A DNA stretch of 64,000 nt from contig JAPLUL010000057.1 of assembly GCA_026397635.1 (NCBI GenBank), positions 7,665 through 71,664 on the forward strand. The letters are read 5' to 3'. Shown in pieces: positions 13,071 through 48,200 of the stretch. Below the pieces are notes generated by a model, which saw only the letters and a list, made by a program, of their open reading frames with translations, was not told the DNA's origin and searched no databases. The stretch is from Verrucomicrobiota bacterium (GTDB lineage: Bacteria > Verrucomicrobiota > Verrucomicrobiia > Verrucomicrobiales > Verrucomicrobiaceae). Each line of letters opens with the position of its first letter. Position 1 is the stretch's first letter. The position numbers and the translations under genes are program-made.

Positions 13071-13101
13071 CTTGGCATCTGTCATTCTGCATTCGTCACT
13101 T
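13071..13101. repeat. Degenerate heptamer tandem repeat (GTCATTC family, single arm)
   Basis: GGCATCT GTCATTC TGCATTC GTCACTT, lying between the DUF485 gene and actP. Confidence 0.55.
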
Positions 13102-13108
13102 ACCTCCT

Positions 13109-14677
13109 ATGTCCGCCCCTCTCATCATGTTCCTGGCCTTCGTCGGCCTCACGCTGCTCATCACCTTCTGGGCCGCGAAGAAAAACACGGGCGCGAGCGC
13201 CTACTTCGCCGCTGGGCGCAGCATCACCGGCTGGCAAAACGGTCTCGCCGTCGCGGGTGACTACATGAGCGCCGCCAGTTTCCTGGGCATTTCCGGCATG
13301 ATCTATGTGGCCGGCTATGACGGCTTCATGTATTCCGTGGGCTTCCTCGTCGCCTACATCACTGTGCTGCTTATCGTCGCCGAGCCGCTGCGCAACGCCG
13401 GGAAATACACGATGGCCGACTTGCTGGCTTATCGTCTCAAACCTCGGCCTGTGCGCGCACTCGCGTCCCTCAGCACACTGGTGGTCTCCACCTTCTACAT
13501 GATCGCCCAAATGGTCGGCGCGGGCGCGATCATCAAGCAGCTTATCGGTATCGACTTCGAGCCGGCGGTGATCGGCGTGGGCGTGCTGATGCTCGTCTAT
13601 GTCGTCTTCGGCGGCATGCTGGCCACGACTTGGGTGCAAATCATCAAGGCGCTGCTGCTCATGGTCGGTGCGCTGCTACTCAGCTATCTCGTTCTCCAGT
13701 TCCACGAGTTCAGCTTCACCAAGTTCTTCCATGCCGTGGCTCACGCTGACTACGGTGGCAGCGCAGCGCCGAAGAATCTCATGGAGCCGGGCTTGAAATT
13801 CGGCGTCGCAGTCGCAGGGCCATGGGGGCCGATCGACCTCATTTCGCTGTGCCTCGGCCTCGTTCTCGGCACGGCTGGCCTTCCGCACATCCTCGTGCGC
13901 TTTTACACCGTGCCAGATGCCAAGACCGCCCGCTCCAGCGTCGTGTGGGCCATGGCCATCATCGGGCTGTTCTACATCATGACGACGCTGTTCGGTTTCG
14001 GTGCGGCCACGATCATCGACAAAGCGACCCTGACCACCGCCGGTAAACTCGACGTCAACATGGTCGCGCCCGTTCTCGCCCAGGTGCTCGGAGGCGAGTT
14101 CTTCTTCGCCTTCATCAGCGCCGTGGCCTTCGCCACCATCCTCGCGGTCGTCGCTGGCCTCACGATGAGCGCCAGCGCCAGCTTCGCTCATGATTTTTAC
14201 TCTAACGTCATTCATCACGGCAAAGAAAACCGTCCGGGCCAGGAAATCCGCGTCGCGCGGATCACCGCCTTCTGTGTCGGGGCTGCCAGCATCGGATTCG
14301 CCATTCATTTGGGCCCCGCCGTGAACGCTGCTTTCCTCGTCGGCCTCGCCTTCTCCGTCGCCGCGTCCGCGAACCTGCCGGTCATTGTGCTGAGCGTGTT
14401 CTGGAAGCGCTTCAACACTTCCGGAGCCGTTGCTGGTCTGGCCGTCGGTTTGGTGGCGTCCATCGTGCTCATCCTGCTCAGCCCCAGCGGCATTTATGGC
14501 AAAGACGCGCCTTTCCCACTCAGCAATCCTGGCATCGTGAGCATTCCCATCGGTTTCCTCGCTGCTTGGCTCGGAACGCTTCTCACGCCTCGTGATCCCG
14601 AGGCTGAGGCCAAATTCGCCGAACTCACCGTCCGTGCTCACACCGGCCTTGGTTCCGAGAAGGCCACAGCGCATTGA
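13109..14677 (+). CDS. actP: Cation/acetate symporter (sodium:solute symporter family)
   Basis: QNGLAVAGDYMSAASFLG, GGMLATTWVQIIKA and GTAGLPHILVRFYTVPDAK. Confidence 0.93.
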   Translation: MSAPLIMFLAFVGLTLLITFWAAKKNTGASAYFAAGRSITGWQNGLAVAGDYMSAASFLGISGMIYVAGYDGFMYSVGFLVAYITVLLIVAEPLRNAGKYTMADLLAYRLKPRPVRALASLSTLVVSTFYMIAQMVGAGAIIKQLIGIDFEPAVIGVGVLMLVYVVFGGMLATTWVQIIKALLLMVGALLLSYLVLQFHEFSFTKFFHAVAHADYGGSAAPKNLMEPGLKFGVAVAGPWGPIDLISLCLGLVLGTAGLPHILVRFYTVPDAKTARSSVVWAMAIIGLFYIMTTLFGFGAATIIDKATLTTAGKLDVNMVAPVLAQVLGGEFFFAFISAVAFATILAVVAGLTMSASASFAHDFYSNVIHHGKENRPGQEIRVARITAFCVGAASIGFAIHLGPAVNAAFLVGLAFSVAASANLPVIVLSVFWKRFNTSGAVAGLAVGLVASIVLILLSPSGIYGKDAPFPLSNPGIVSIPIGFLAAWLGTLLTPRDPEAEAKFAELTVRAHTGLGSEKATAH

Positions 14678-14763
14678 GATCGCGGCTAAAGATGTGAAAG
14701 CCAATCCCAAGGTGTCGGCATGGTGATTTGCCTTCATGCCACATCATGCCATGATGGGTGGTG

Positions 14764-15564: not shown

Positions 15565-15566
15565 CC

Positions 15567-16352: not shown

Positions 16353-16390
16353 GCCTCCCGCGTCTTTTCACCCTGCAATCCCCCCTTCCC

Positions 16391-17437: not shown

Positions 17438-17440
17438 GCC

Positions 17441-20400
17441 TCACTCGATCGGGGCGGGCCGGTCGAAGATCAAACGCATGATGCGTCGGCTCGGATTGCC
17501 GTTGGTGAGCGGATCACGTACACGCATGGTCTGCACTGGGCCGTCACTGATCACTTCCAAGGTCCGCGCATTCCAGATGGCGAGATCGTCCGTGGATTGC
17601 GCACCATAAATCACATCCGGCATGTCCTTGGGCCGTGTGAAGTTCAAGGTCAGACCATTCGCATCACGCACCGGCAGCAATGCGGGGTTGCGGCTCATCG
17701 GATTCATGCCGAGAGCATATTCGGCGAGGTTTTTCCATCCGTCGCCATCAGGATCGGTGTCATCGTCAGCGAGACCTGCCGTGATCTGCTCCGGGGAGAA
17801 GTGCTGCGTGCGCCATTGGCTCATGGACTGGCCCTGAATGAGAAGCGTGCCGGAAGCCGAGCCGTTGTAGTTGGAGTCATCGACAACCGCCAGGACCGCG
17901 TGGCTGCCGTGGCTCGTGGGTGCGCTCGTGGAACCGTTGTAGGTCACGTTCACCATGAGACCTAATGGGCTTGTCGTTGTCGAAACGGACTTGGCGCTGC
18001 CATCGTAGGCCTGCGTCAGCCCATTCAAGGTGATCGTGGCGGTAGCTTTGGCGATCACGAGTGTCCCTGCGGCAGAGCCGACGTAGTTTGCGTTGTTGAT
18101 CGTGCCCACCACCGCATAAGTGGCCGCATTCGTCGGTGCAGTGGCCGATCCATCGTAGGTTAAATTGACCGTAAGGCCTGTCGGTGATGTTGTAGCGGTG
18201 GCCGCTTTGGCGCTGCCATTGTAGGTTTGTGCCAGACTGCCAAGACTCACCGTGGCCGTAGCTTTGGCAATGACCAGAGTGCCATTGGCCGTGCCGACAT
18301 AATTCGGCTCATTGATGCTAGCGACCACCGCATAGCTACCAGCATTGGTCGGTATCGTGCTGAGGCCGTCATAAGTGTAGCTGACGCTCAGGTTCGCAGG
18401 ATTCGTCGTACTCGTGGCTGCCAGCGGGCTGCCGGTGTAGGTGGGCGCCAAGCTTCCGAGCGCCACCGTGGCTGCTGCTTGCTGGATGGTGATGCTGAAA
18501 CTCTGTGAGGCTGCGGAGCCAATGCCATTGCTCGCGCTCAATGTGCCCGTGTAGGTGCCTGCAGCAGTGGGGGTGCCTGAAATCACGCCTGAAGTGCTCA
18601 AGGATAGCCCGGTCGGCAGCGCCCCGGTGGCCACGCTGAACGATGGCGCTGGAAAGCCCGAAGCCGTGCAACTGAAGTTGTAGGCCGTGTTAAAAGTGCC
18701 CGAATTCGTCGGCGTGCTGCTGGTGAAGGCTGGGGCTTGATTGATGGTGATGGTGAAGGCCTGCGTTGCGTTGCTACCGATCCCGTTGCTGGCGGTGAGA
18801 GTGCCGCTGAACACACCGGTAGCCGACGGAGTGCCAGAGATGACGCCGGTGGTGGGGTTCAAATTCAGGCCCGTGGGCAGCGTGTTGGCCGGAACACTGA
18901 ACGTGGGTGCTGGAAAACCACTGGCCGCGCTAGTGAAGCTGTAAGCCGTGCCGAGGAGTCCAGTGGTCGTGGGAACGCTGCTGGTGAAGGCTGGGGCTTG
19001 ATTGATGGTGATGGAGAAAGCCTGCGGGAAGCTGCCAGCTCTATTCGTGGATGTGATGGTTCCAGTGAAGGTGCCTGCTGTGTTCGGGGTGCCGGAGATC
19101 ACGCCTGCGGTGCTCACAGAAAGTCCCCCTGGCAGTGCCCCTGCGGTGAGGCTGTAAGTCGGCGCAGGAGAACCAGTCGCTGCGTACGTGTGAGTGTAGG
19201 CAGTGCCAACAATCCCCGCTGCTGGTGCCGCACTGGTGATCGAGGGTATTTGATCGACCGTGATGCTGATCGTCTGCGTTGGGGCTACGCCGATGCCGTT
19301 GCTCGCTGTCACCACGATGCCGGAGTACGTGCCCGCTGCCGTCGGCGTGCCGCTGATCACGCCTGTGCTGCTCAGGCTCAGGCCTGGCGGCAGCGTGCCC
19401 GTGTGTGAAAAGGTCGGCACAGGGAAGCCAGACGCGGTATAGGCGAAGTTGTAAGCCGAACCCACCACAGCAGGGCTGGGCGGCGGGCCGTTGGTGAAGG
19501 CGGGCGGCTGGTTCACCGTGACCGTGAAGGTTTGTGTCACGGTGTTGCCATCCAGATCCGTGGCTCTGACGGTGACGTCGGTCTGACCTCCAGAGAGCGC
19601 ATTGATCTGCACGTTCGTACCACTGATCACAGCACTTGCCACGGCACTGTTCGTGTTTCCAGTCACCGCATAACCCAAAACGGCCACGGGCGCTGCGGAT
19701 GAGATGGACACCACCTTCGTGGTGTCCATGGTCGCGGAGGCGGAGGTCAGCGGCCAGTCCGTCAAAGAGCTGTTGGGCGTTCCATCCACATTCACGCTGG
19801 AATTGACGGTCGGCAGGCCCGCCATGGCATCTGCCACGGTCATGCCGCTCCCGGCAACGCGGGCGAAGGCGGTGAATCCTCCGTTCGCATTCGGACTGCC
19901 GCTGTCGCGGTCGAGATTGCTGCTGTTGTTGCCTAAATTCACAAAGAACTGATTCGTGGCGCTGTTCGGGTTGCTCCCGAACTTGGCCATCGCCACGGTG
20001 CCGCGCAGATTTGAAATTCCAGGCTCATTGATGGGTGAGGCCGCTGTCGGGATCGCTGAGAAATTGTTCGGCGCAGACTGAACCTTGAAGCCCCCGCCTT
20101 GAACGACGAAGCCCGGAATGGCGCGGTGAAAAACCGCGCCATTGTAGTTGTTCACAGCCGCGTTGACATAGCTCAGGAAGTTCGTGACGGTCTGCGGGGT
20201 GGCTGTGTTGTAGAGGATGAAGTCCATCGTCCCCAAGTTGGTGACGATGCGCACTGCGGATTCAGAGTCCGGGTCCGAGAACTTGTCGGTGAGAGACACA
20301 GAAGTGTTTCCGCCTGGAGCGAGCGTTTGTGTCCCGATGGTGGTAGCGGAGACAGGTGCCGCCGCGGCGCGGATCACACGAAGCTGGAGGGTATTGTTGG

Positions 20401-21553
20401 TGGTCCAGCCGTTGGCAAAAGTGGCGGACATGGGGCAGTTGAACGCGCCAGTCACTATGGCGGTGCCCGTGATGGCTCCGGTCGAACTATTGAAAGTCAG
20501 ACCTGTCGGCAGACCTGTGATGCTCCACGAGGTTCGGGCTGATCCGCTGGTAACCACCGCTTGGTAGGAGAACGGTTGATTGTGAAAGATGGGCGGGGCG
20601 GTGCCACTGGTGAAGCCGTCCCTTGTCGTCGCACTGACGGTGTTGCTGCGCGCAGATTCTAGGATGTTGGTAGGGGTTGTCTGAAAGGCGGCCGCTACTT
20701 GGAAATCATAAGCTGTACCCGCAGTAAGACCTGTAACGGAAAAACTGGAGGCATTGGCCGCGCTATAGTTAAACAGGGTATAGCTGCCACTGCTGGTCGG
20801 TTTGAAATAGACCGCGTAGCCTTGTTCTATAGCAGAATTGTCCGACCAACTCAGGTTTACCGTGCTTTCCGAGGCAGTCGTGGCCGTCAGACTCGTCGGC
20901 GCATTGAACTGCGTGGTGAGGGAGGCGGTGTTGGAGTAGCCCGTGTAGGTGTAGGGAGCAGAGGCTCCAGTGCGCGCCCGGATTCGCACCTCGTAGCTCG
21001 AGTTGGGTTCAAGGAACCCCAGGAGATCGACCACCACGACATTGGCTCCGACAGAACCGAGCAGGCTGAACGCTCCGGCAGGAAGTTTCCTCGTCTCAAT
21101 TTCAAAACCTGTCTCGGTCGTGGCGTTGTCCGCCCATGTAATTAAGGTGGATTCCTTATTCACCAGCCTGTTCAAGCTGCCAGGAGCGTTGAAGGCGGCT
21201 TGCGTGCAGGTCACAACCGGGGTGAAGGCCGAATTTCCGCTGCCATTGAACGCCCGGACCTGATACTTGGCTGCGAAATTCGCAGGTGTGGTCAGTTGCA
21301 CTCCAGTCTGGTTCGCGACGACAGTCCCAAACGACACCCAAGGCGGAGGATTCGTGGCCAGATCCGTGGTGTATTGAATCTCAAAACCCGTCTCATCTGC
21401 CGAATTGTCATTCCACAGGAGTGCAACGCTGGTGCTCGTTTCTGCGCGGGCCGCCAAATAGGTCGGCGCGGTTGGTGCCGCCAAGGCGGCGGTGGCGAAC
21501 GACAGGACCACGAGGGATACCAGCAGCGGCAGGCTGAATGAGCGAAAACACAT
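17441..21553 (-). CDS. Large secreted/surface protein: signal peptide, 3x FN3, Ig-like (He_PIG) repeats, cyclophilin-type PPIase domain, 3x MBG-like repeats and a Verrucomicrobia-type C-terminal domain
   Basis: WNDNS/WADNA/WSDNS FN3 repeats; FHRAIPGFVVQGGG and GTVAMAK...SATNQFFVN; LP(P/G/T)GLS repeats; TYDGS..APTNA repeats; DPDGDGWKNLAEYALGMNP. Confidence 0.88.
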   Translation of the reverse strand: MCFRSFSLPLLVSLVVLSFATAALAAPTAPTYLAARAETSTSVALLWNDNSADETGFEIQYTTDLATNPPPWVSFGTVVANQTGVQLTTPANFAAKYQVRAFNGSGNSAFTPVVTCTQAAFNAPGSLNRLVNKESTLITWADNATTETGFEIETRKLPAGAFSLLGSVGANVVVVDLLGFLEPNSSYEVRIRARTGASAPYTYTGYSNTASLTTQFNAPTSLTATTASESTVNLSWSDNSAIEQGYAVYFKPTSSGSYTLFNYSAANASSFSVTGLTAGTAYDFQVAAAFQTTPTNILESARSNTVSATTRDGFTSGTAPPIFHNQPFSYQAVVTSGSARTSWSITGLPTGLTFNSSTGAITGTAIVTGAFNCPMSATFANGWTTNNTLQLRVIRAAAAPVSATTIGTQTLAPGGNTSVSLTDKFSDPDSESAVRIVTNLGTMDFILYNTATPQTVTNFLSYVNAAVNNYNGAVFHRAIPGFVVQGGGFKVQSAPNNFSAIPTAASPINEPGISNLRGTVAMAKFGSNPNSATNQFFVNLGNNSSNLDRDSGSPNANGGFTAFARVAGSGMTVADAMAGLPTVNSSVNVDGTPNSSLTDWPLTSASATMDTTKVVSISSAAPVAVLGYAVTGNTNSAVASAVISGTNVQINALSGGQTDVTVRATDLDGNTVTQTFTVTVNQPPAFTNGPPPSPAVVGSAYNFAYTASGFPVPTFSHTGTLPPGLSLSSTGVISGTPTAAGTYSGIVVTASNGIGVAPTQTISITVDQIPSITSAAPAAGIVGTAYTHTYAATGSPAPTYSLTAGALPGGLSVSTAGVISGTPNTAGTFTGTITSTNRAGSFPQAFSITINQAPAFTSSVPTTTGLLGTAYSFTSAASGFPAPTFSVPANTLPTGLNLNPTTGVISGTPSATGVFSGTLTASNGIGSNATQAFTITINQAPAFTSSTPTNSGTFNTAYNFSCTASGFPAPSFSVATGALPTGLSLSTSGVISGTPTAAGTYTGTLSASNGIGSAASQSFSITIQQAAATVALGSLAPTYTGSPLAATSTTNPANLSVSYTYDGLSTIPTNAGSYAVVASINEPNYVGTANGTLVIAKATATVSLGSLAQTYNGSAKAATATTSPTGLTVNLTYDGSATAPTNAATYAVVGTINNANYVGSAAGTLVIAKATATITLNGLTQAYDGSAKSVSTTTSPLGLMVNVTYNGSTSAPTSHGSHAVLAVVDDSNYNGSASGTLLIQGQSMSQWRTQHFSPEQITAGLADDDTDPDGDGWKNLAEYALGMNPMSRNPALLPVRDANGLTLNFTRPKDMPDVIYGAQSTDDLAIWNARTLEVISDGPVQTMRVRDPLTNGNPSRRIMRLIFDRPAPIE
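18716..19014. repeat. 38-bp exact direct repeat inside the adhesin (261-nt period)
   Basis: GCTGCTGGTGAAGGCTGGGGCTTGATTGATGGTGATGG at 18716-18753 and 18977-19014. Confidence 0.9.
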
Positions 21554-21817
21554 GGTTGTGGGCAAAAGTGCGAGTGTATTAGCAGAGGGTAGCCATAGAC
21601 GCCACTCAAAGAGCTCTCGTTCAACCTGCTGGTTGTCAATTGTTTCTCCAATCGCCCGGGTTTTCAGGTCAGGGCGGCATCAGAGCTCGTAGGCGCGGTG
21701 CCGTGCCCCTGCGCATGCAGCCGCCGCACGGGGGCTCTCCCTGGCCTCCCTCGGTCACGTTTCGGGTCCAGGAACGGTCCAGCTCCGCAGCGCCAAACTG
21801 GCTCGGGCTGCTGCCGT

Positions 21818-21893
21818 GAGTTTCAAGTTCCAGGTTTCATGTTGGATGGCTCGGCCGCCGAACTTGAAACTTGAAACTTGAAACTTGGAACTC
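21818..21893. repeat. Heptamer tandem/inverted repeat element (AACTTGA family)
   Basis: (AACTTGA)x3 + AACTTGG + AACTC at 21861-21893; the inverted arm GAGTTTCAAGTTCCAGGTTTCA is at 21818-21839. Confidence 0.9.
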
Positions 21894-22356
21894 ATTCCCC
21901 AATCCACACGCCCGTCCCCACCGGCACGAGATCGAACAGCTCGATCACATCCCGGTTCCGCAAGCGCACGCAGCCGTGACTGGCGGGGCGGCCGATGCTG
22001 TTTTCATCGTTGGTGCCGTGGATGTAAATGTAGCGCTGAAAAGTGTTCGCGTTGCGCGGCTCCAGGCCGTGCAGCCAGAGGATGCGGGTAAGGACGAAAT
22101 CAGACTTCGTGTCCATCCCAGGTGTCCACCGGCCGACCGGCTGCCGGGATTTGAAAATCGTGCCGCTTTCCGCGCCATCGCCGTGCTTCTCTTTGACCAC
22201 AAAGCGGCCCAGCGGCGTCTGGTGGCTGCCTTCGGTGAAACCTAGGCCGAATTTCGACGTGGAGCAGGCCCATTCGTTGACCAAGCGCACACCGTCGAAC
22301 AAACGCAGGCGCTGGGTGCCGATGCTGACTTCGAGACGTGGATGGGCGGGAGGCAT
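21892..22356 (-). CDS. L,D-transpeptidase (YkuD family)
   Basis: IYIHGTN...ASHGCVRL catalytic His/Cys motif; TPLGRF. Confidence 0.92.
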
Positions 22357-22461
22357 GGGGCGATTGTAATCCTCAAAACTCTCACCACCAGCCGTCCTTT
22401 GCGCTTGGCGGCCGAAATCGGAGCATTGATGCCGAACGCAGCATGGGAATCGCTTCTTTTT

Positions 22462-23484: not shown

Positions 23485-23533
23485 GGAAATTTGCTTCGCA
23501 TGCTGACTGGGAATCCTTTCAATCCAACCCTTT

Positions 23534-25615: not shown

Positions 25616-25748
25616 GGCTCATGCTGAGCCTGAACCGCCCCGCCGCAATCGAGAAATGAAGGGTAACCAAGGCTCAGTGAGCGCGTCGCGGCAACAGGCG
25701 ATGAGAAACTTCCTTGCCGGAGCCGATCTCTTCTGATTGCATGGCCGG

Positions 25749-26756
25749 ATGAATCCGCCTCCAGACTTCCTTTCCCGCCGCGATGCCTTGAAAGCCACCA
25801 TGGCTTCGGTGGGACTCAGTTCCCTCGCCTTTGAGCCTGCCAAGGCTGCACCTTCTGCGCCGGATGCGCGACGCGGTTCGACGAAGAAATATGACATGCT
25901 GAAGTCGATCAACCTGTGGGCGTTTCCATATCCGGAGCGCATGACGCTGCGCGAGTGCCTGCAACTCGCGAAAGACGCCGGATTCGATGGCATCGAACTG
26001 AACTACGACCTCGACAACGATCTCTCGCCGAAGCACGGCACGGCGGATTATGTCAAAATCCGCAAGATGGCCGACGAGATCGGCATTCAGATCAGCGGGC
26101 TGTGTTCCTTCCTCTTCTGGCCGTATCCGCTGACCAGCAACGATCCCGCGAAGCGTGCTCAAGGCATCGAACTGGCCGGAAAGATCGCGCAGTGTGCGCA
26201 TGACCTCGGCGTAGAGAATGTGCTTGTCGTGCCGGGGGCCGTCCACATCCCGTGGCGCACGGATCACGAGCCGGTGGCGAATGACGTGTGCGATGCACGT
26301 GCCCGCGAGGCCGTGGGGCAGCTCGCGAAACAGGCGGAGAAGTTGAAGGTTTGTCTCAACATCGAAAACATCTTCTTCAACGGCTACCTCATGACGCCGA
26401 TGGAGATGAACGCCTTCGTGGACAGCTTTGGCAGCGAGCAGGTGCGCGTGCATTTTGACACGGGGAACATCAGCATGTTCCAGTTCCCCGAGCACTGGGC
26501 CAAGGTGCTCGGCAATCGCACCAAGAACGTCCACCTGAAGGAGTTCACGAAGAAAGGCACCGACTTCAGCCTCGAAACCTTCCGCCCGCTGCTCGACGGC
26601 ACCACGAACTGGCCCGCCGTCACCGACGCGCTCGCGGAGACCGGCTACCGAGGCTTCCTGACCTTCGAATACTTCCACCCGTATGCCCATTACCCCGAGG
26701 CGCTGATCTGGCAAACCTCGGATTCGATGGACCGCATTCTTGGTCGTCAATCATGA
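25749..26756 (+). CDS. Tat-exported sugar-phosphate isomerase/epimerase (xylose isomerase-like TIM barrel)
   Basis: SRRDALK Tat motif; GFDGIE, IENI, FDTGN, HLKE and TFE metal ligands. Confidence 0.88.
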   Translation: MNPPPDFLSRRDALKATMASVGLSSLAFEPAKAAPSAPDARRGSTKKYDMLKSINLWAFPYPERMTLRECLQLAKDAGFDGIELNYDLDNDLSPKHGTADYVKIRKMADEIGIQISGLCSFLFWPYPLTSNDPAKRAQGIELAGKIAQCAHDLGVENVLVVPGAVHIPWRTDHEPVANDVCDARAREAVGQLAKQAEKLKVCLNIENIFFNGYLMTPMEMNAFVDSFGSEQVRVHFDTGNISMFQFPEHWAKVLGNRTKNVHLKEFTKKGTDFSLETFRPLLDGTTNWPAVTDALAETGYRGFLTFEYFHPYAHYPEALIWQTSDSMDRILGRQS

Positions 26757-28280: not shown

Positions 28281-28392
28281 AAATGACGAAGCACGAATGA
28301 CGAAGCACCACGAAGCGGCAACGAAGCGCGGTGAGTTTGGGACTGGGTCATTGGGATTTCGTTCGTCATTCGGATTTACTCATTCGTCATTC
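28281..28392. repeat. Heptamer tandem/inverted repeat element (AATGACG family)
   Basis: Left arm (AATGACGAAGCACG)x2; right arm TTCGTCATTC...CATTCGTCATTC. Confidence 0.85.
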
Positions 28393-28401
28393 CCGCCGGC
28401 C

Positions 28402-31698: not shown

Positions 31699-31730
31699 AA
31701 GCGGAACCGGGCAACCGGTTCCGCTTTTTT
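31699..31730 (+). terminator. Rho-independent terminator (probably bidirectional)
   Basis: 10-bp stem GCGGAACCGG, GCAA loop, CCGGTTCCGC, then T6; lies between convergent genes. Confidence 0.9.
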
Positions 31731-32832: not shown

Positions 32833-32930
32833 AAGTTGACGGTTGTTTTCAGAGGGGCGGTGAAGAGCGTTGTTTGGGGTTTGGAAGCCACGGTAAACCA
32901 TCGTCAACAACGGCAAACCACCGTCAACTT
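32833..32930. repeat. 16-bp inverted repeat (1 mismatch) with an internal direct repeat, between the pilT genes
   Basis: AAGTTGACGGTTGTTT (32833-48) versus AAACCACCGTCAACTT (32915-30); GG(T/C)AAACCA(T/C)CGTCAAC occurs twice with a 20-nt period. Confidence 0.8.
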
Positions 32931-33982: not shown

Positions 33983-34061
33983 GGCAGAAAACGCTAGCGG
34001 TGGCTTGCCTGCGGCTCAACCCCGTACTGCGTTTTTCGTTACTCGAAATCTGGCTGCGCCA

Positions 34062-34196
34062 GTCAAGCAGTCGTCAAGATCGTCAAGGAGTGGTCAAGGA
34101 GTGGCCAAGGAGTGGCCAAGGAGTGGCCAAGTGTCGTGCCGTGACCTGCTTGACCACCCTTTGACAATCTTGACCGGCGCAGCCTTGACCTCTCCA
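34062..34196. repeat. 11-mer tandem repeat with an inverted arm
   Basis: CAAGGAGTGG(T/C) x4 at 34084-34127, preceded by GTCAAG units; four (C/T)TTGAC units at 34149-34190. Confidence 0.9.
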
Positions 34197-34200
34197 CCCC

Positions 34201-35400: not shown

Positions 35401-35413
35401 CGCCAGACTTTTG

Positions 35414-35491
35414 AACCACTCATGGCCACTAATCCAACACTGATGGATCTGATTCAGGCATCAGTGTTCTATCAGTGTGTGATGAGTGGTT
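35414..35491. repeat. 10/11-mer tandem/inverted repeat hairpin (CACTGAT family)
   Basis: AACCACTCAT pairs with ATGAGTGGTT and AACACTGAT pairs with ATCAGTGTT. Confidence 0.85.
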
Positions 35492-35664
35492 TAAAAATCT
35501 GAATCCGCCAGGCATGCAGGCACAGCGGTGGATCGTCCACGGCGAGGGCTGACGTCTCGCCGATCTCGCCATCGGCCAGATAGGCGGCGTCACCGGTGAT
35601 CGGCCTTGCTTGGATCAACGTGCGTGGCCGCTGGCTGAAGTTTCGCCGGGTGAGTGACTCAAGA

Positions 35665-36027
35665 TTACTGGCGCACTTCCTTGATGTGCTTGTCCGGCGC
35701 GGCGTCAAAAGTGGCCTTGCTGGCGGCGTCGGCAAAAGCGACTTGGCGTGAGTAGCTGACGGTGATGGACGGGTCGGCCTTTTTCTTGCTGAGCGGGCAT
35801 TGGCCAGTGACGGCGCTCAAGATGTTCACGAGGTAGGCCTTGGGCGTGGCGGTGAACTGGGCTTTGCAGCGGTTGCAGCAGACGGCGACGGTTTTGCTGT
35901 AGTTGCTGGTGATCGCTGGGCTGGCAGGCTTGCCAGAGATCGGGCAGACGGTGTTCAGCGGCTCGGCAGCGTTCGTGATGCCAGCGAACAGGGCGCAGGC
36001 GGTGATGAAGGTGAGGATGTGTTTCAT
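35665..36027 (-). CDS. Small secreted protein with two YHS/TRASH-like repeats
   Basis: Signal peptide; CPISGKP...VAVCCNRCKAQF, then CPLSKKK...VAFADAASKATF. Confidence 0.8.
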   Translation of the reverse strand: MKHILTFITACALFAGITNAAEPLNTVCPISGKPASPAITSNYSKTVAVCCNRCKAQFTATPKAYLVNILSAVTGQCPLSKKKADPSITVSYSRQVAFADAASKATFDAAPDKHIKEVRQ

Positions 36028-36152
36028 GATGGGCTGTGTGCAGACGACAGAAATGGGATACGAATTGACCCTTAGACCTGCAACCAAAATTTTCCCACCG
36101 CCCAGGGCCGGCAGGCAACACGCAACCAAGTGAGCGAGCTTGGAGGTGCGCT

Positions 36153-38663
36153 CTATTTTTTCGTCTGATACTTCGGATAACGCTGCTGGAGCTGCTTGAG
36201 CATCTGTTTGGCCTGGGCCTCGTCACCAGACTTTTGCAGGGCTTGGGCGGCTTTGAACAGTGCATCTGGCGTGACGTCAGGATCTTCGTAGAACTGGCTG
36301 GGCACGGCGTATTTCGCGGCTCCGGCCTTCCACTTCTCCATGGCGGCTTCCTGCTGGCCCGTGGCGGCGAGTTGGTCGCCTTGGGCGGAAAAAATGTCGC
36401 CTTCGAGGATGAGCAGCTCGGCCTGGAGTTTGCCGTCTTTGACCACTTGCAGGGCTTCTCGGGCCACTTTGTCGGCCTCATCGAAGCTGCCCTTGCCAAG
36501 GAGGGCGCGTCCTTTGGTGAGCTGGGCGCGCGCGGTAGCGGCGGCGTCGGGGTTGGATTTGAGGAAGTTGTCGGTGGCCTGGATGCTGGCGTCAAATTGG
36601 GCGTTTTGAAGCTGCGCCATGCCGAGGTAGTTCCACACGACCGGCTCGGTGTTTTCCGGGGTCTGTGGTGTGACGGCGAGTTCAAGGAAGCGTGCGGTGC
36701 GTTTGAAGTCTTCACCACTGTAGAGTTTGAGGCCGAGCCATTTTAGAATGTTCGGAGGCACTTGCCCACCTGGCTTGGCCGCAAGGTAGCTGTCGATGGT
36801 CTTGGCGAGGTCATTGGCATTCTGCCGGGCGTAATCGCACAGGATGATGAGCTGGCTGGATTTTTCGAGGTAGTCGCTGCTGTCGATCTCGATCGCACGC
36901 CGCAGAGCAGGTACGGCTTTGTCATAGAGCTTCTGGTCGAAGTTTCCGCGTCCGATACCGTAGTAGGCCTGCGCGGAGGCGGTGGTGGTGGGGTACTTCT
37001 TGAGCAGCGTCTCAAAAGCAGCGACGGTGCCCTTGGGGTCTTTCTGCTCCATGGCGATGAAGCCGAGATGGAGCCAGGCCATCTCGCAGGCATCGGATTT
37101 GGGAAATTCCTTCGTCACCTGCTCGAAGTCGGCCTTGGCCTTTGGCAAATCGCGGGCGTCGCGGTGGGCCAGACCTCGGCGGGCATAGGCCTTGGGGAGG
37201 AGTTCATGCTGAGGGTATCCTTCGATGAAACGGGTGAAAGCAGCCACGGCCTCCTGCTGGCGCCCAGCCTCGGCCTGCGCCCAGCCCAGGTTGAAGAGCG
37301 TGCCTGGACGCAGCTTTTCAGGCAGTTTGTCGATGCTGATGTCGGTGTAGCTGACCACGGCCTGGGCGTAGTCGGCCTTGTTGAAGTAAAAATCCGCGCG
37401 GATGAGGCGCGCGAGGGACAGATACTCGTGCGCTGCGCGGCTTTGCGCATGCTTGGCGATGAAGGCCGTGGCGAATTCGCCGAGATCCCTGTCATTGAGC
37501 AGGTAGAAGCAGTAGAGCTTCCAGTAACCGGCATCGAAGGCCTCCTCCGTGTCCGGGTGGTATTGCTCGACGAGCAGGTAAATCTCTACTGCGCGTGCAT
37601 AGCTCTTCCGCATGCGATACGCGTGACCGACGAGTACCAGCATCTTGGCGCGCGAGGCTCCGGGCGGCAGAACCTCGGAGTTCTTGTTGTAGTAGTCGAT
37701 AACGGCATCGTAGTCGCCTTTAACAAACAACGCCTGGATGATGCCGATGAGCGCGATCCCGCGGTTCTGCTCGTTGGTTTCCGGCATACGCAGCGTCTTT
37801 TCAAACATCAGGATGGACTCGTCTGGCTTTTTCAGCTCAGCGAAGAGCACCGCGGCGCGGATGGAGGCCTCCGCCACGATGGCGCGGTCCGCGCTGGTAT
37901 TGACGAGATCTTCGAAGATGGGAAGCGCCTCAGTCTTTTTGTCCTGCGCTAAGAACATGCTCCCGAGCGTGAGAAGAGCGGTTTCGCGGTAGGGATTCTC
38001 CGTTTTGAAAGCAATGACCGTTTTCAGGGCGGCTGCCTGTTGGTCCTTGTCTCCCACCATTTCATAAGCGCGGCTTTTGTTGTAGGCGGCGGCCAGTTTC
38101 ACCTGGGCACTCTTGTGTTTGGCCTCGCAGAAGGCGAAATGCCGCGCGGACTCGATGAATTTCGACTCGTTGAAGGTCGTCGCGCCGAGGCGGTAGGCGG
38201 CGGAGGGGGCGCCCTCGCTGTCCGGGTAGTGGGTCACCACCTCCGCATAGTAGCTTGCCGCTTGTTTGAGCTGGTTTTGCTTCATGTAGCACTCACCGAT
38301 GCGGTAAAGCGCGTCCGGCACTTGGCGTCCGGTGGGAAATTTTTGCAGATACTTCGAATAGCCTTGCACGGCGATCTCCCACTCCTGGCGTTCATAGGCC
38401 AGCGTTGCGAAGTCGAACATGTCATCATCTGGCCCTTTGGTCCGGGGCAGGGCGGGACGCACGCTCGAATCGTCGAGCACCGGTTGTGCTTTCGGCGGCT
38501 GGGGCACCGGAATGGCCTTCGGAACCGGAGCCTCATCCTCGACAGGAAGCGCACGCGGAGGCACCTGCTGAGCCAGTGCGGAAAAAGCAATCAGTCCAAA
38601 CGCCGCAGAGGCTAGGCGGAGGGGGCAGCGTGGTGAGGCGGTTGGCATCTTGGCAAAGATCAT
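36153..38663 (-). CDS. Large periplasmic tetratricopeptide-repeat protein
   Basis: Signal peptide, Pro-rich linker and many TPR units with the YP/FP...DALY pattern; overlaps the exbD stop. Confidence 0.88.
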   Translation of the reverse strand: MIFAKMPTASPRCPLRLASAAFGLIAFSALAQQVPPRALPVEDEAPVPKAIPVPQPPKAQPVLDDSSVRPALPRTKGPDDDMFDFATLAYERQEWEIAVQGYSKYLQKFPTGRQVPDALYRIGECYMKQNQLKQAASYYAEVVTHYPDSEGAPSAAYRLGATTFNESKFIESARHFAFCEAKHKSAQVKLAAAYNKSRAYEMVGDKDQQAAALKTVIAFKTENPYRETALLTLGSMFLAQDKKTEALPIFEDLVNTSADRAIVAEASIRAAVLFAELKKPDESILMFEKTLRMPETNEQNRGIALIGIIQALFVKGDYDAVIDYYNKNSEVLPPGASRAKMLVLVGHAYRMRKSYARAVEIYLLVEQYHPDTEEAFDAGYWKLYCFYLLNDRDLGEFATAFIAKHAQSRAAHEYLSLARLIRADFYFNKADYAQAVVSYTDISIDKLPEKLRPGTLFNLGWAQAEAGRQQEAVAAFTRFIEGYPQHELLPKAYARRGLAHRDARDLPKAKADFEQVTKEFPKSDACEMAWLHLGFIAMEQKDPKGTVAAFETLLKKYPTTTASAQAYYGIGRGNFDQKLYDKAVPALRRAIEIDSSDYLEKSSQLIILCDYARQNANDLAKTIDSYLAAKPGGQVPPNILKWLGLKLYSGEDFKRTARFLELAVTPQTPENTEPVVWNYLGMAQLQNAQFDASIQATDNFLKSNPDAAATARAQLTKGRALLGKGSFDEADKVAREALQVVKDGKLQAELLILEGDIFSAQGDQLAATGQQEAAMEKWKAGAAKYAVPSQFYEDPDVTPDALFKAAQALQKSGDEAQAKQMLKQLQQRYPKYQTKK

Positions 38664-39109
38664 CTCACGGAGGGTGTTGCGGCAGGTTGGTCGGCATCCG
38701 CCTTGCGGGTGGCGAAGGCGATGTTCCAGATGCCCGCCTTCTGACAGGTGTCTAGCACACGGATGACATGCTGGTAGTTGACGATTTCGTCGCCACGGAG
38801 GATCACGGCTTGGTCCTTGTAGAGTGCCACAATGTTTTGCAATTTTACCAGCAGCTCGTCGGTGTTGAACTTCTGCCCGTTGACGATGATCTCGCCGTCT
38901 TTTTTGATGTTGATGATGATCTCGCCGACGTTGCGGGACTCCTTTTCCTTCCCTTCATCAGCCGCAGGCACGCTCACATCCATCACCTGCTCCTCCTTCG
39001 CATACTGGAAGGTCACGGCAAAGAAAATGACCAGCAGGAACAGCACGTCCACCAGCGGCGCGAGCTGCATGGGTGTGGGTTCGATCGAGTGCTGTTTGCG
39101 GAAGTTCAT
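38660..39109 (-). CDS. exbD: ExbD/TolR biopolymer transport protein
   Basis: LAPLVDVLFLLVIFF TM with conserved Asp; VILRGD...YQHVIRVLDTC. Confidence 0.9.
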   Translation of the reverse strand: MNFRKQHSIEPTPMQLAPLVDVLFLLVIFFAVTFQYAKEEQVMDVSVPAADEGKEKESRNVGEIIINIKKDGEIIVNGQKFNTDELLVKLQNIVALYKDQAVILRGDEIVNYQHVIRVLDTCQKAGIWNIAFATRKADADQPAATPSVR

Positions 39110-39124
39110 GGGCGTGAAGGGATC

Positions 39125-39224
39125 ATGACGAAATCAGAATGACGAATGACGAACCAGGGCCGTCTTCCTGTCACTCGTCGTTGGAACTTCGTCATTCATT
39201 CGTCATTCGGGAGTTCGACATTTC
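39125..39224. repeat. Heptamer tandem/inverted repeat element (AATGACG family)
   Basis: ATGACGAAATCAGAATGACGAATGACGAA ... TTCGTCATTCATTCGTCATTC, between exbB and exbD. Confidence 0.88.
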
Positions 39225-40034
39225 CTACTGCCCGGCCACCGCTCTCGCGGCTCTCTTGTACTGCACCGCGAGCAGTGCCATCAGGTGCGTCGTCGCCGCT
39301 TCCATCTCTGAGATCAGGCGGTTCACCTTGCCACGGAAGATGGCGTAGAAAATGAGGGCTGGGATGCCGATCACAAGGCCAGACGCCGTGCATAGCAGCG
39401 CTTCAGACACTCCCTGTGCGAGGCCGAGCTGGCTGGAGCCGCCCGCGCCCTTGCCGGAAATCTCGTGGAAGGTGGTGATCATGCCCAACGTCGTGCCGAG
39501 CAGCCCTAGCATCGGTGCCACCGCACCCACGTCGCCGAGATAGGCGATGCGGGCCAGCAGCAGGCTCGACTGGCGATTGCCCTCAGCCTCGGTGACCTCC
39601 TTCACTTCTTCAAAGCTTGCCGTCGGGTTGCGTGTGGCGAAATCCAGCGTCTTGGAGGTGATGCGGGCGATGCACTCGTTGCGGCGGTTGCACACCGCCA
39701 GCAGCCCCAGGTAATCTTGCTTGCGGATCAGTGCGTCCGCCGAATTCATGAAGGCGTCACTGACCACGGTGCCTTGCCTCACGGTGAAGGTGAAAAGCAC
39801 GATCATGAAGAAGGCGATCATCGAGAGAATGATGAGCGGGTAGGCCATGACCCCGGTGCGCTTCACGAAACCCTCAAAGGTCAGCACATCGGCGTACGGA
39901 TTGTCCTCCAAGGCAGCGGCTTGTGTGACAGCGGACCTGACGACCGGCGCGGGCTGCTGGGCCTGGGCAGGAACATTCATCGTGGCGATGACAGCCGCTA
40001 GCAAGGCCAGGGCAAGGAGAAATTTGCGATGCAT
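39225..40034 (-). CDS. exbB: MotA/TolQ/ExbB proton channel protein
   Basis: APMLGLLGTTLGMITTF and GVSEALLCTASGLVIGIP. Confidence 0.9.
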   Translation of the reverse strand: MHRKFLLALALLAAVIATMNVPAQAQQPAPVVRSAVTQAAALEDNPYADVLTFEGFVKRTGVMAYPLIILSMIAFFMIVLFTFTVRQGTVVSDAFMNSADALIRKQDYLGLLAVCNRRNECIARITSKTLDFATRNPTASFEEVKEVTEAEGNRQSSLLLARIAYLGDVGAVAPMLGLLGTTLGMITTFHEISGKGAGGSSQLGLAQGVSEALLCTASGLVIGIPALIFYAIFRGKVNRLISEMEAATTHLMALLAVQYKRAARAVAGQ

Positions 40035-40101
40035 GAGGGCGCGACTGTAAACGTGAGCGCCCGCCTTGCAAGCGGGCTGGTTGGCGTGCTTTTTTCCAGA
40101 C

Positions 40102-41544: not shown

Positions 41545-41681
41545 GGAGGTGCGTAAGATACGCTTTTTTTAGGTGATCTGCTTTCGCATCTTTCCAGACA
41601 CAAGAAAGCGCAAAATCGGAGCGCAAGCTGCTGATGGAAGTATTGTCACGCGGGTGTAGCCTGCGCGCCCCAAACCCGAAA

Positions 41682-44705: not shown

Positions 44706-44896
44706 GTGCCCAGGCCTGCTGTCGTTGTTGCTCTCTTATTTGGACCTTGGGCGCATCCGCATGGATGTTGCTGGCGCAAACTGAGGTTTTGAGCCAAGGC
44801 CCCATCACTCACGGCCACGCCCTTCCAAAACGACCCACATCACAGGCTGGACAGGCCACAGTGGCGAACTTGAACGCTCGCACCAACGCTTGGTAA

Positions 44897-45214
44897 ATGC
44901 TGATGGCGGTGTTTGCGGGTGCGCTGGCGCTGCGGCAGTTCATCACGTTGTTACCGACGAAACCGGGCGATCACCGCACGCTGTTCTGGGTATTCTTCAT
45001 CATCACGCCGCTGCAGGCGGCGGGCATGGCAGCGCTCGTTGTGCTCATGGGCTTCACTGAAATTTTAGCGATCTCCGCGATCAAGCGTGATCGCGGCGTC
45101 AAAGACTGGGGCACCGCCATCGGCGGCCACGGAGGATTCATGGGCCGTATGGGCTCGCTGAGCTTCGCCGCTCCGGTGTTTTTCCATGTGTCGGGTTTTT
45201 GCTTCGGTCATTGA
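44897..45214 (+). CDS. Hypothetical membrane protein (possibly a relic)
   Basis: Two hydrophobic segments; no recognised family. Confidence 0.3.
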   Translation: MLMAVFAGALALRQFITLLPTKPGDHRTLFWVFFIITPLQAAGMAALVVLMGFTEILAISAIKRDRGVKDWGTAIGGHGGFMGRMGSLSFAAPVFFHVSGFCFGH

Positions 45215-45256
45215 TGCTGGAAAGCCGCACGGGGTGGCGGACGTTCTTTCCGGCTC

Positions 45257-48200
45257 ATGCACCTTCGTTCCATCGCCGTTTTTGCTCTTTTGACCGCTAC
45301 CGCTTCTGCGGCGGGGAAGCTGGACTTCAATCGCGACATCCGGCCGATCCTCAGTGACAACTGCTTCGCCTGCCACGGCTTCGACGCAAAGAAACGAAAA
45401 GCGGATTTGCGGCTCGATGTGCCAGAGGGCGCGTTCAACGCGATTGAGGGCGTGTTTCCGATCAAGCCGGGGGATCCCGAGGTGAGTTCGATCATCCAGC
45501 GCATTGTTTCGACGGATGAAGATGAGGTAATGCCGCCGCCGGAAGCTCACAAGAAGGTCACCGCGGCGCAGGTGGAGATTTTGAAGCGCTGGATCAAGGA
45601 GGGCGCGGAGTACATGAAGCACTGGGCGTTTGAAGCGCCGGTGAAGGCTGTGGTGCCGGAGGTGAGAGGTCAGAAGTCAGAGGTTAGAAACCCCATTGAT
45701 GCGTTCATTCAGTCGCGGCTGGTGGCAGAGGGGCTTGCGCATTCACCGGAGGCTTCGAAGGAGGCGCTGATCCGCCGCGTGACGCTCGATCTGACCGGCC
45801 TGCCGCCGATGCTGGCAGAGATCGACGCGTTTCTCGCGGACACGAGCGCGGACGCGTATGAAAAAGTCGTCGCTCGCTTGTTGAAATCAGAACGCTACGG
45901 GGAACACATGGGCCGCTACTGGCTGGACGCGGCTCGCTATGCGGACACGCACGGCCTGCACCTCGACAACGAGCGCAGCATGTGGCCTTACCGCGACTGG
46001 GTAGTGAGCGCGTTCAATGCGAACCTGCCGTATGACCAGTTCACGCTCTGGCAGCTTGCGGGGGATCTATTACCGAATGCCACGACGGAGCAGCAAATCG
46101 CCTCCGGTTTCAATCGCTGCAACGTGACGACGAGCGAGGGCGGTTCGATCAATGAGGAGTTCATCTTCCGCTACGCGGTGGATCGCGCGGACACCACGAT
46201 GGCGGTCTGGCTGGGCCTCACCGCAGGCTGCGCGGTCTGCCACGATCACAAGTTCGATCCCATCTCGCAGAAGGAGTTTTATTCGATGTACGCCTTCTTC
46301 AACAGCGCAGCTGATCCGGCCATGGACGGCAACATCCTGCTCACGCCGCCGATTCTGCGTCTGAGCACCGCCGAGCAGAAGAAACAGATCGCGGAACACG
46401 ACCAAGGCATCGCGGCGGCACAGTCAAAGATCCGCGAGTCGATCTCGAAGCTGAACTACACCGATCCAGCGTCGCTCAATCCGCCGCCGCCGGTGCAGAC
46501 GAGCGAATTGGTGTGGTTTGAGGATGCTTTCCCCACGGGTGCCAAGGTGGAATCGAGTGGCGGGCATCCCACTCAACTTGTGACCAAGGACAAAGACCCT
46601 GTCTTTAGCGGCAACGCGGCGCTGAAACGCACGGCAACTGGCGTGGCGCAGGATTTCTTCGCGGCAGGCGGCAAATACGAGATCCCGCCGAATGGAAAAC
46701 TCAGCGTGCAGTGCTTCATCGACGAGAAAAACCCGCCAAAGGCCATCATGCTGCAATTCCACACCGCAGGGTGGAATCATCGCGCGGTGTGGGGCCAGGA
46801 AGGGGCGATCCCCTACGGTCAGGTGCGCACACCTGAAAAAGTGCAGATGGGAGCACTGCCGGAAGCTGGGAAATGGGTGAAGCTCGAAGTCGCGGCGGAT
46901 CGTCTTGGTTTGAAACCCGGCGCGAAGGTCACGGGCTACGCGTTCACGCAGTTTGGCGGCACGGTTCATTGGGATCATCTGGCGATGAGTTCCCGTGTCG
47001 ATCCTGCGAAGGATCCGCAGTGGTCGTGGAAAGTCTGGGCTGAAAAGAATCAGGGCAAACGCGTGGCCGAGTTGCCCAACGACCTGCAAACCCTCGTGCG
47101 CGGCAAAAAACAGCCCGAGTGGCCAGAAAAGGATGTGACCCGCCTCAAAGAATGGTGGTTTGAAAATGAGTATCAGGGTGCGCGTGAGATCGTGGATGGC
47201 CTCCGGGCTGAAAAACTGGCCTTGGAGGCCCAAAAGAAGGTTCTGGACGATGTGATCCCCGCCACTTTCGTCATGGCCGACTTGCCACAGCCGAGGGACG
47301 CCTTCGTGATGGATCGCGGCCAGTATGACAAGCCCAAGGACAAGGTCACACGCGGCACACCGGCGATTTTCCCGGCCTTGCCCAAGCAGGACCATTACAC
47401 GCGCCTCGATCTCGCCAAGTGGCTCGTCAGTCCGCAGCACCCGCTCACCGCCCGTGTGCAGGCGAATCGACTGTGGCAGCAGTTCTTCGGCACCGGATTG
47501 GTGAAAACGAGCAACGATTTCGGCTCCCAGGGCGAGCCGCCGAGCCACCCCGAACTGCTCGACTGGCTGGCGGTGACCTTCCGCGAGAGCGGCTGGGACA
47601 TGAAAGCGTTCGTGAAGCTGATCGTCACCTCGCACACTTACCGGCAGAGTTCGCAGTTCTCGGTTCACAGTTCGCAGTTAGACCCGGAGAACCGTCTTTT
47701 ATCCCATGGTGCGCGTTTTCGTCTGGATGCCGAGGTGGTGCGTGATTCATCGTTGTTCGTGTCTGGTCTGCTGAGTCCGAAGATCGGCGGGAAAGGTGTG
47801 AAGCCCTATCAGCCGGAAAACATCTGGGAGCCGGTCGGTTTCGGCGGCAGCAACACGCGCAACTACATCCAGGACCACGGTGAATCGCTTTACCGCCGCA
47901 GTTTGTACACCTTCTGGAAGCGCACCGCACCGCCGCCGAACATGACCTCGTTTGATGCGCCGAACCGCGAGAGTTACTGCCTGCGCCGCGAGCGCAGCAA
48001 CACCCCGCTGCAGGCGCTCACGCTCATGAACGACGTACAGTTCTTCGAAGCCTCGCGGAATTTCGCCCAGCGCGTGCTGCAAACTGCCACCAGCACGGAT
48101 GCGCGCATCACCGCGCTGTTCCGCCGCGCCACCGGCCGCTTCCCGAATGCCCAGGAGGCCGAAATCGTCCGCCAGTCTGTGGAAAAACACCTCGCGGCCT

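Follow-up and report, generated by a model that had tools for sequence, protein, structure and literature searches.

The intervening sequences (IVS) of 23S rRNA are long hairpins in a transcribed non-coding stretch, and those of the Leptospira and Coxiella types carry an open reading frame (ORF) for a protein of the family PF05635. The short tandemly repeated repetitive (STRR) sequences of heterocystous cyanobacteria are heptanucleotide repeats; to our knowledge, heptamer-type intergenic repeats (STRR, TAACTGA and others) have been catalogued for decades, with their origin and mechanism not given. Avd is a nucleic-acid-binding cofactor of reverse transcriptase. In the present study, we analysed hairpins whose arms consist of short tandem units and which lie in operon spacers of a 64,000-nt stretch of DNA from a freshwater Verrucomicrobiota bacterium (contig JAPLUL010000057.1; the whole stretch is referred to as the window). 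Six such hairpins (B to G) are considered, with a probability of roughly 0.6, to be cargo-less, non-autonomous copies of small palindromic cassettes. Copies of these elements are gained and lost among related genomes, with different families occupying one spacer in different lineages; the copy number in the arms shifts by whole units between near-identical strains; and in the family of the unit AATGACGAA, cargo-bearing and cargo-less forms both exist.

The closest known system is the ORF-bearing rRNA IVS, with the same protein family as cargo and with ORF-less and ORF-containing forms likewise scattered; both forms occur among the rRNA insertions of Candidate Phyla Radiation (CPR) bacteria (bioRxiv 10.1101/2024.02.27.582315). 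The likeness includes the long hairpin in a transcribed non-coding stretch, the PF05635 loop gene in some copies and the scattered phylogenetic distribution; however, the elements studied here reside in mRNA, in spacers separating protein genes, their arms consist of short tandem units, and the window copies are gene-less. With the repetitive extragenic palindromic (REP) sequences, the bacterial interspersed mosaic elements (BIMEs) and the REP doublets forming hairpins (REPINs), the elements share the high copy number, the nature of extragenic operon palindromes, the inverted dimers forming larger hairpins, the variability among strains and the lack of target duplication (PMC3733652). A REP unit, however, is an individually palindromic (imperfect) sequence of 20-40 bp whose stem has 8-9 bp and whose GTAG or CGTC tag is unpaired (PMC3733652), whereas the window units are not stem-loops and have no unpaired tetranucleotide tag, the arms being arrays of 7-11-nt words; furthermore, the gene associated here encodes a four-helix-bundle protein, not a REP-associated tyrosine transposase (RAYT). 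TAACTGA intergenic direct repeats occur in Beggiatoaceae, Cyanobacteria and Bacteroidetes (PMC4679880). Like these and STRR, the present arrays consist of degenerate heptamers (the units of D, E and F being 10-11 nt), fall into several families, are mainly intergenic and variable in copy number, and often stand just upstream of start codons; unlike them, they mainly form an inverted pair spanning the whole spacer rather than direct repeats, and have a cargo form in addition. Miniature inverted-repeat transposable elements (MITEs) are likewise short, non-coding, palindromic and multi-copy, and are read as internally deleted derivatives of a gene-carrying parent; here, however, neither a target-site duplication nor a transposase-encoding parent was found, and the terminal repeats are internally periodic and hypervariable. 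Finally, PF05635 resembles Avd, the accessory four-helix-bundle protein of diversity-generating retroelements (PMC10053308), a likeness that offers a lead for the mechanism only; no reverse transcriptase, template repeat or variable repeat was found near any copy examined. Full-text searches of the literature yielded no account of heptamer-array hairpins that frame PF05635 genes, or of hairpins of this kind in Verrucomicrobia.

Hairpins of tandem units in operon spacers

The G+C content of the window is 58-65%, and its nearest public relatives are freshwater metagenome-assembled genomes labelled Verrucomicrobiaceae, Prosthecobacter or Brevifollis. Hairpins were detected with Tandem Repeats Finder and an inverted-repeat scan together with direct reading, and the genes flanking them were identified from Pfam. 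For comparison, 52 related Verrucomicrobiaceae loci around pilT were gathered (0.9 Mb of related DNA in total) and the orthologous gaps were excised. In the following, L001 and similar labels denote related or metagenome loci (L001 is a relative with 95-96% DNA identity to the window), and X2, X3, X8, X10 and similar labels denote public sequencing runs.

An earlier note, made from the window sequence, had proposed nine loci of one design, mostly in gaps inside operons. Six of them (B to G, Table 1) were confirmed as imperfect hairpins, in which two inverted arms of 2-6 degenerate 7-11-nt tandem units can pair across loops of 3-66 nt; the other three depart from the design, A being a solo array and H and I being coding arrays without an inverted copy. 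The proposed location also holds for B to G, all of which lie in gaps separating same-strand (-) genes, and not for H and I, which are inside a DUF1549/DUF1553 ORF. Both in the window and in the relatives, the hairpins extend through the whole spacer, from stop codon to start codon, in the orientation of the host genes; no such structure is present in most of the other window gaps. In a strict design scan, which required exact copies of a 6-mer at a distance of 6-15 nt and, within 400 nt, similarly spaced copies of its reverse complement, the window gave 3 design sites against 0.19 expected from 100 order-2 Markov shuffles of the window (shuffle maximum, 1), and the 0.9 Mb of related loci gave 29 against 2-4, so that the design is far more frequent than in shuffled sequence, as the earlier note had predicted. 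The folds of B, E and F are much more stable than those of shuffled sequences (z, -5.3 to -8.9); interruptions of the stems account for the weaker scores of C, D and G (z, -1.1 to -2.8).

Table 1. Repeat features of the window (z, fold score relative to shuffles; MFE, minimum free energy)
Feature	Position	Strand	Structure	Context and fold
A	13076-13101	+	solo CGTCATT-type half-array TGTCATTCTGCATTCGTCAC, mRNA sense	between DUF485 stop and candidate actP start (ATG at 13108, ~8 nt downstream of the array); z +0.2
B	21819-21885	-	hairpin, arms GTTTCAAG / CTTGAAAC, 7-nt unit AACTTGA x4.6	between YkuD (21892-22356) and 1374-aa adhesin gene (17441-21565); MFE -37/-33, z -5.7/-5.3
C	28282-28392	-	AATGACGAA-family (AATGACG-type) hairpin	between two FtsX/MacB-type permease genes; z -1.1/-2.2
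D	32833-32930	-	GTTGACGG/ACCGTCAAC hairpin, ~10-nt units, left arm shortened in window strain	between pilT (32930-33982) and pilT (31730-32824); z -1.6/-2.8
E	34052-34184	-	GTCAAGGAGTG 11-mer array x6.5; array 34062-34131 pairs with CCTTGAC-type units 34146-34189	directly 3' of GlcNAc 2-epimerase stop codon, before pilT; z -5.5/-7.8
F	35404-35501	-	near-perfect 98-nt hairpin, ~11-nt ACACTGAT-type units	ends 3 nt upstream of GlcNAc 2-epimerase ATG; z -8.7/-8.9
G	39125-39210	-	AATGACGAA-family (AATGACG) hairpin	between exbB (39225-40034) and exbD (38660-39109); z -2.0/-2.5
H	45659-45691	+	GAGGTCA-type heptamer array, in frame, encodes EVRGQKSEVR	variable linker of DUF1549 region
I	47647-47681	+	CAGTTCG-type array, in frame, encodes SSQFSVHSSQL	length constant among orthologs

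B to G are neither intrinsic terminators nor known structured RNAs: Rfam 15 gave no match at E <= 1 on either strand of the window from 12000 to 48500, none of the 19 terminator-like sites between 21000 and 40500 coincides with any of them, and the sequence after the 3' arms is C-rich, with no T-runs.

As for the units themselves, six of the seven types contain TGA after A, T or C (AATGACG, GTTGACG, CTTGACC, ACTTGAA, CACTGAT and TGACCTC, the last being the complement of the H unit). Because TGA and NTG are contained in the units and the period is 7 nt, the arrays provide all three frames with stop codons and potential start codons. The ORF upstream of the element in L031 terminates at the TGA of the first unit.

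Gain, loss and dispersal of the elements

The orthologous gaps of the relatives are not invariant, which is again as the earlier note had anticipated; each may be empty, filled, or filled with another family. Gap D measures 12-30 nt and is repeat-free in about 29 relatives, has a GTTGACG-type hairpin of 111-164 nt with a varying number of units in 10 relatives (the window copy is 105 nt), and in L014 and L018, whose closest kin are empty, contains a 152-nt AATGACGAA hairpin instead. Gap E has a conserved 79-nt base, which stands without an element in about 20 relatives and which, in the window and in seven relatives, is extended by a GTCAAG hairpin of about 105 nt. Gap C is empty (11-41 nt) in nine relatives; it is occupied by the AATGACGAA family, in two sub-families, in the window and five relatives, and by a third family GAGGACGAG in nine more, where CGTCCTCGTCC...GGACGAGGACG, whose loop measures about 100 nt, is followed by a solo CGTCATT array; in all, gap C is host to two or three families. 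State changes were counted on the maximum likelihood tree of the two pilT genes (41 taxa), and the minimum numbers were 7 for D, 5 for E and 10 for C. The number for E falls to about 4 because L001, which had been scored as empty, has a partial deletion in the alignment, removing the 3' end of the epimerase gene and part of the 5' arm; the empty score was thus rejected. The sister pair L013 and L015 has opposite states both at D and at E. Note that the window loci had been taken for possible empty sites; they are rather cargo-less elements, and the truly empty sites are the spacers of 11-41 nt.

The filled and empty states of gap D disagree with the pilT tree (L014 groups with L024, and L016 with L018), and the empty gap D of L016, L017 and L024 starts with ATCCGTC, similar to one ATTCGTC unit. 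Either recombination among strains or repeated near-precise deletion leaving a one-unit footprint would account for the mismatch. At gap E, other palindromic inserts of about 400 and 300 nt were observed in L004 (7901-8493) and L019 (2522-2898), with MFE of -295 and -187 kcal/mol, respectively, and that of L004 sits within remnants of the GTCAAG element; these nested inserts suggest that further elements are drawn to the spacer or to the hairpin itself. G is present in L001 (4974-5072). F is conserved in L001 and L004, is represented by its inner and 3' part only in L002 and L003, and has a degenerate 5' arm in L046.

Near-identical strains (~99% identical) were compared with the window on contigs of four further metagenomes, of freshwater, river and estuary origin (X2, X3, X8 and X10). 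B is shorter by 7 nt in X2 and X3 and by 14 nt in X10; D is longer by 30 nt, namely three 10-mers at 32836, in X3 and X8; E is shorter by 22 nt in X2 and X3 and by 33 nt in X10; and no indel was found in G among the contigs of X3, X8 and X10 crossing the hairpin. These indels are exact multiples of the units, which indicates that slipped-strand change is fast and acts on top of the gain and loss of elements. Thus, the view of the earlier note that an active process or a mobile element, rather than slippage, generates the repeats stands as far as the frequency and the variable gaps are concerned, but slippage also takes part. At 15253-15370 of L018, a short inverted GGAGTGGTGGAG segment is followed by the 8-mer CCACCACT, repeated without mismatch at least 15 times up to the contig end; this is an extreme expansion of another unit family, at which the assembly apparently broke. 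The metatranscriptome runs X25 to X28 gave a few scattered contigs of about 150-215 nt, none of which crosses a hairpin.

The families also recur at unrelated sites. The B family has a second, non-orthologous site (L021:17964 and L022:19809), as does the E family (L046:17460), and a D-like hairpin with both arms on one contig was found in run X26. For the AATGACGAA family, the layout of AATGACGAA, 12 nt and AATGACGAA is common to the unrelated sites L031:20452, L035:3561, gap D of L014, and C and G of the window, and the copies at unrelated sites share sub-family signatures (ACCAGAATG or TGAGTAAATCC, and specific degenerate units). The common layout and the sub-family units argue that whole elements were copied between sites, and that the recurrence is not just that of a favoured word. 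In addition, the summed depth of metagenome contigs rises 2-6 fold over the 3' arm of C (28354-28397), where at least five different foreign flanks were observed, which points to further copies of this arm in the same communities. Soil, sediment and freshwater metagenomes contain the pattern of two AATGACGAA units separated by 2-12 nt in at least 120 contigs. Among the matches listed, 76 simple clusters are of the '><' type, most with loops of 13-130 nt, vs 12 of the '<>' type; in the Verrucomicrobiaceae loci, the AATGACGAA units come first and the TTCGTCATT units second in all 13 unambiguous two-arm clusters.

Solo arrays form a further class. In the related loci, arrays of TTCGTCATT (CGTCATT) stand 3-25 nt upstream of start codons in the mRNA sense at six of six independent sites, including A of the window, which is merely two CGTCATT-like words with no fold signal and no inverted partner. 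Solo arrays of TCATTCTGCATTCGTCATTC were also found upstream of start codons (gap C of L006 and L029, L015:7082, L021 and L022, and L007:19632). In the metagenomes, the sense orientation of solo arrays prevails by 12 to 7 in a crude ORF test.

Several candidate observations were discarded. The AATGACGAA element had seemed to occur in both orientations relative to transcription, which was withdrawn since a near-palindrome aligns about equally well both ways. Large 'loops' of 188-659 nt between metagenome AATGACGAA arrays were tried as cargo and turned out to be mostly two separate elements flanking an ordinary gene; there was no transposase-like ORF between the arms in the large-loop metagenome copies examined. 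Matches of the E, D and B units to viral contigs were mostly unrelated TTGAC-type phage iterons or coding repeats, with few inverted partners, no four-helix-bundle gene and no hairpin design reaching from stop to start codon. At 445-928 of L119, a AATGACGAA hairpin has a gene-less 386-nt loop with a nested palindrome of ~9-nt GTGAGCGAC-type arrays, which indicates that arrays can sit within arrays.

Cargo-bearing copies, the proposed cassette and its alternatives

In L162 (1623-2178), an element that follows the stop codon of an ECF (extracytoplasmic function) sigma gene and precedes the ATG of a gene for a Ser/Thr kinase has an intact ORF in its loop, which matches PF05635, '23S rRNA-intervening sequence protein' (37.0 bits; cutoff, 33.8). 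A frameshifted copy of the PF05635 gene, about 85% identical to the L162 ORF (estimate), lies in the loop at an independent site in L118, which is flanked by the C-terminus of a permease and by a gene for an ABC ATPase, read by eye as MlaE- and MlaF-like. The arms of both are of the same type as those of C and G, and the cargo gene is co-oriented with the host operon. The kinship that the earlier note had pointed to, with repeats flanking four-helix-bundle genes, is found for the AATGACGAA arms, which bracket the PF05635 gene at these two independent loci, and concerns one of about six families.

The 120 closest homologues are 86-95% identical and annotated 'four helix bundle protein', and the near-identical ones at the first locus are labelled Udaeobacter, Chthoniobacterales and Sulfotelmatobacter. 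Two of the homologue proteins were traced to eight places (L174-L181; Udaeobacter or Chthoniobacterales labels), all of which are the sigma-kinase locus; thus, they represent one insertion and L118 a second. Of the 120, 116 start with an MTNDEGMTKSE-like peptide, which is the translated arm, and the start codon of the cargo is taken to be the ATG in AATGACG because there is no Met between the arm and the conserved domain. An exhaustive profile-free search gave 4119 clusters at E <= 1e-3 (50%-identity clusters); among the best 150 representatives, which were inspected, 13 read through an AATGACG-type array and 5 through another heptamer (KLQAPSS, corresponding to AAGCTCC), indicating that periodic arms are not peculiar to one lineage. 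A widened four-helix-bundle motif matched only L118 and L162. A PF05635 ORF in the loop was found in no hairpin of the window and only in metagenomic members of the AATGACGAA family; the window copies, having no loop ORF, are therefore classed as cargo-less derivatives and not as full members.

On the basis of these data, the cassette would consist of a 5' arm of 2-6 degenerate 7-11-nt units, a loop, and a 3' arm of inverted units, and would be located in a short transcribed spacer between a stop codon and the next start codon in an operon. In its full form, the loop would contain a PF05635 (23S-rRNA-IVS / four-helix-bundle, Avd-like) gene in the direction of the host operon, with the start codon within the 5' arm. 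Gene-less copies may have arisen through loss of the loop gene, as MITEs arise from insertion sequences, and the other families of the window (GTCAAGG, GTTGACGG, AACTTGAAAC and ACACTGAT) may be the same kind of thing; their spread would need a factor acting in trans. The long stems would form double-stranded RNA on the operon transcript. Stems of 20-40 bp would be plausible RNase III substrates and, in a manner similar to rRNA IVS, probably constitute an RNase III or stability element and not a terminator; a role in mRNA processing is conceivable. It is also conceivable, although the idea is post hoc, that the stop and start codons in all frames make the insertion independent of phase and allow the cargo to be translated from the arm.

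Several points weigh against this interpretation. The mobility of the elements is deduced from their distribution, and no transposase was found; nor was any target-site duplication found in the comparison of filled and empty sites and in the flanks of 10 copies, or any conserved target motif at the elements. A search of the window and of L001-L053 (0.9 Mb) with hand-written motif patterns yielded no PF05635 or GxxExxY gene. The link to the cargo consists of two loci, both from soil metagenomes and of one family; only 2 of about 80 hairpins contain cargo, and the similarity of cargo-less loops to the inner 3' boundary of the cassette is borderline (13 of 18 positions). F is conserved and no second site of it was found, so that its membership in the dispersed class is uncertain and it may be a different thing. 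Lastly, the antisense strand is more stable than the mRNA sense strand in 27 of the 29 filled gaps C, D and E of L001-L050 (by 10 kcal/mol on average), and the weaker sense fold does not favour the view that a stable RNA stem is selected, and argues against strong selection for RNA stability; a candidate explanation by such selection through G-U pairs was likewise not supported. We suspect that G-poor sense-strand loops are the reason for the weaker sense folds. By eye, these loops and the stretch before the ATG are G-poor and C/A-rich.

A wider reading, which we regard as tentative and rather doubtful, is that PF05635 genes with inverted periodic arms constitute one widespread, undescribed class of selfish cassettes in host transcription units, including both mRNA spacers and rRNA IVS. 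The heptamer arrays would close any upstream ORF and open the cargo ORF in whatever phase, and a multimeric Avd-like protein would recognise the periodic arms and promote copying or maintenance; gene-less operon hairpins, STRR-like arrays and the coding arrays H and I would be footprints of one system. The cassette interpretation itself offers a concrete and testable picture, in which heptamer-type repeats are the arms of hairpin elements entering and leaving operon spacers. If this picture is true, rRNA IVS, orphan four-helix-bundle genes and intergenic heptamer repeats are joined as one system. It would also supply, for the study of mRNA processing and translational coupling, hairpins inserted by nature at known junctions of operons together with the isogenic empty sites of sister strains. 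In practice, the hairpin sites break metagenome assemblies and inflate apparent differences between strains.

Among the alternatives, the elements may have been selected by the host as cis-regulatory RNA or translation elements, namely stabilising or processing stem-loops or frame-independent stop and restart devices, their mobility being secondary. The position exactly between stop and start codons inside operons agrees with this, as do the solo CGTCATT arrays upstream of starts at all six sites, which resemble the TAACTGA repeats of Beggiatoaceae (PMC4679880), the TGA in six of seven unit types and the start of the cargo ORF at an in-unit ATG. However, the operon junctions of most relatives work without the elements, the families replace each other, the copy number drifts between strains, the sense folds are weaker than the antisense ones, and the orientation bias of solo arrays is weak in the metagenome sample; we thus consider this explanation unlikely.

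Less probable still is that the elements are of the REP/BIME or REPIN type and are moved as single-stranded hairpins by a RAYT (an IS200/IS605-like tyrosine transposase) encoded elsewhere. They occupy the same niche of short extragenic operon palindromes in many copies with presence and absence among strains, they lack target-site duplications as IS200/IS605-type insertion predicts, CGTC is contained in the AATGACG unit, and GTAG-type REPs have been reported from the verrucomicrobium Opitutus terrae (PMC3733652). Nevertheless, the 7-11-nt units are non-palindromic and CGTC lies within the paired arm, unlike the tag of the REP units described above; there is no conserved 4-5-nt target 5' of the elements, and the only gene found between such arms is that of PF05635, not a transposase.

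A purely local origin, in which arrays grow by slipped-strand mispairing and the inverted arm arises by template switching with no transfer between sites, is already disfavoured and appears highly improbable. Slippage is active, as the whole-unit indels of the strains show, expansion can hit one arm only, and the empty gap D starting with ATCCGTC resembles one unit; however, unrelated loci and metagenomes share long, specifically degenerate arm layouts and not merely the unit, an 18-mer is common to the coding array I and the intergenic array of L008, and cassettes comprising arm and cargo are ~85% identical at two unrelated loci. Equally hard to credit is a role at the level of DNA and not RNA, in which a DNA-binding protein would recognise the arrays as iteron-like binding sites with a helical period of 10-11 nt, for although D and E have periods of 10-11 nt with a TTGAC/GTCAA core and TTGAC-type iteron arrays occur on phage contigs, at least six unrelated unit sequences would demand as many proteins, the sites are inside operons and not at promoters or origins, their number and presence vary freely, and the viral matches lack the stop-to-start hairpin design.

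Coding arrays and neighbouring genes

H and I are both inside a 1029-aa PSCyt1/DUF1549/DUF1553 ORF (45257-48346). At H, the closest orthologs (P0001-P0008, 92-96% identical) have a shorter linker without repeats (PPPVKGM-VKN), and the repeat form was seen in the more distant orthologs P0009, P0010, P0078 and P0116. The 18-mer GTTCGCAGTTCTCGGTTC of I occurs as its exact reverse complement in the intergenic array at gap C of L008. GGTCAAG arrays are also in frame within large ORFs of L014, L024 and L052. The coding arrays fit the same unit families, occasionally tolerated in protein loops, and have no hairpin design.

The genes from about 21.5 to 41.5 kb of the window are on the - strand, and their order in the transcript is DUF1501, exbB, exbD, a TPR protein, a degraded RluA-like remnant, GlcNAc 2-epimerase, pilT, pilT, a major facilitator superfamily (MFS) transporter, two FtsX/MacB-type permeases (lolE of the earlier note) and, further on, YkuD and the 1374-aa adhesin. 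The region upstream of F (35500-36150) is a variable hot spot. In the corresponding regions of the relatives (L002:5677-6583, L003:3829-4797 and L046:7852-8548), the C-terminus of an RluA-like pseudouridine synthase (read from the translation) is followed by different, unrelated small genes of 246, 226 and 160 aa; the window retains a remnant of the RluA-like gene, and the 5' arm of F begins where the C-terminus of that gene would be. The adhesin (- strand) contains FN3, He_PIG and MBG_3 repeats together with a cyclophilin-type peptidyl-prolyl isomerase domain (residues 438-588). Within the gene of an AP_endonuc_2 xylose-isomerase-like TIM-barrel protein (ORF 25737-26756, +), 839 nt (25773-26613) are absent from L001 and from one X3 contig; this presence/absence polymorphism is unrelated to the hairpins.

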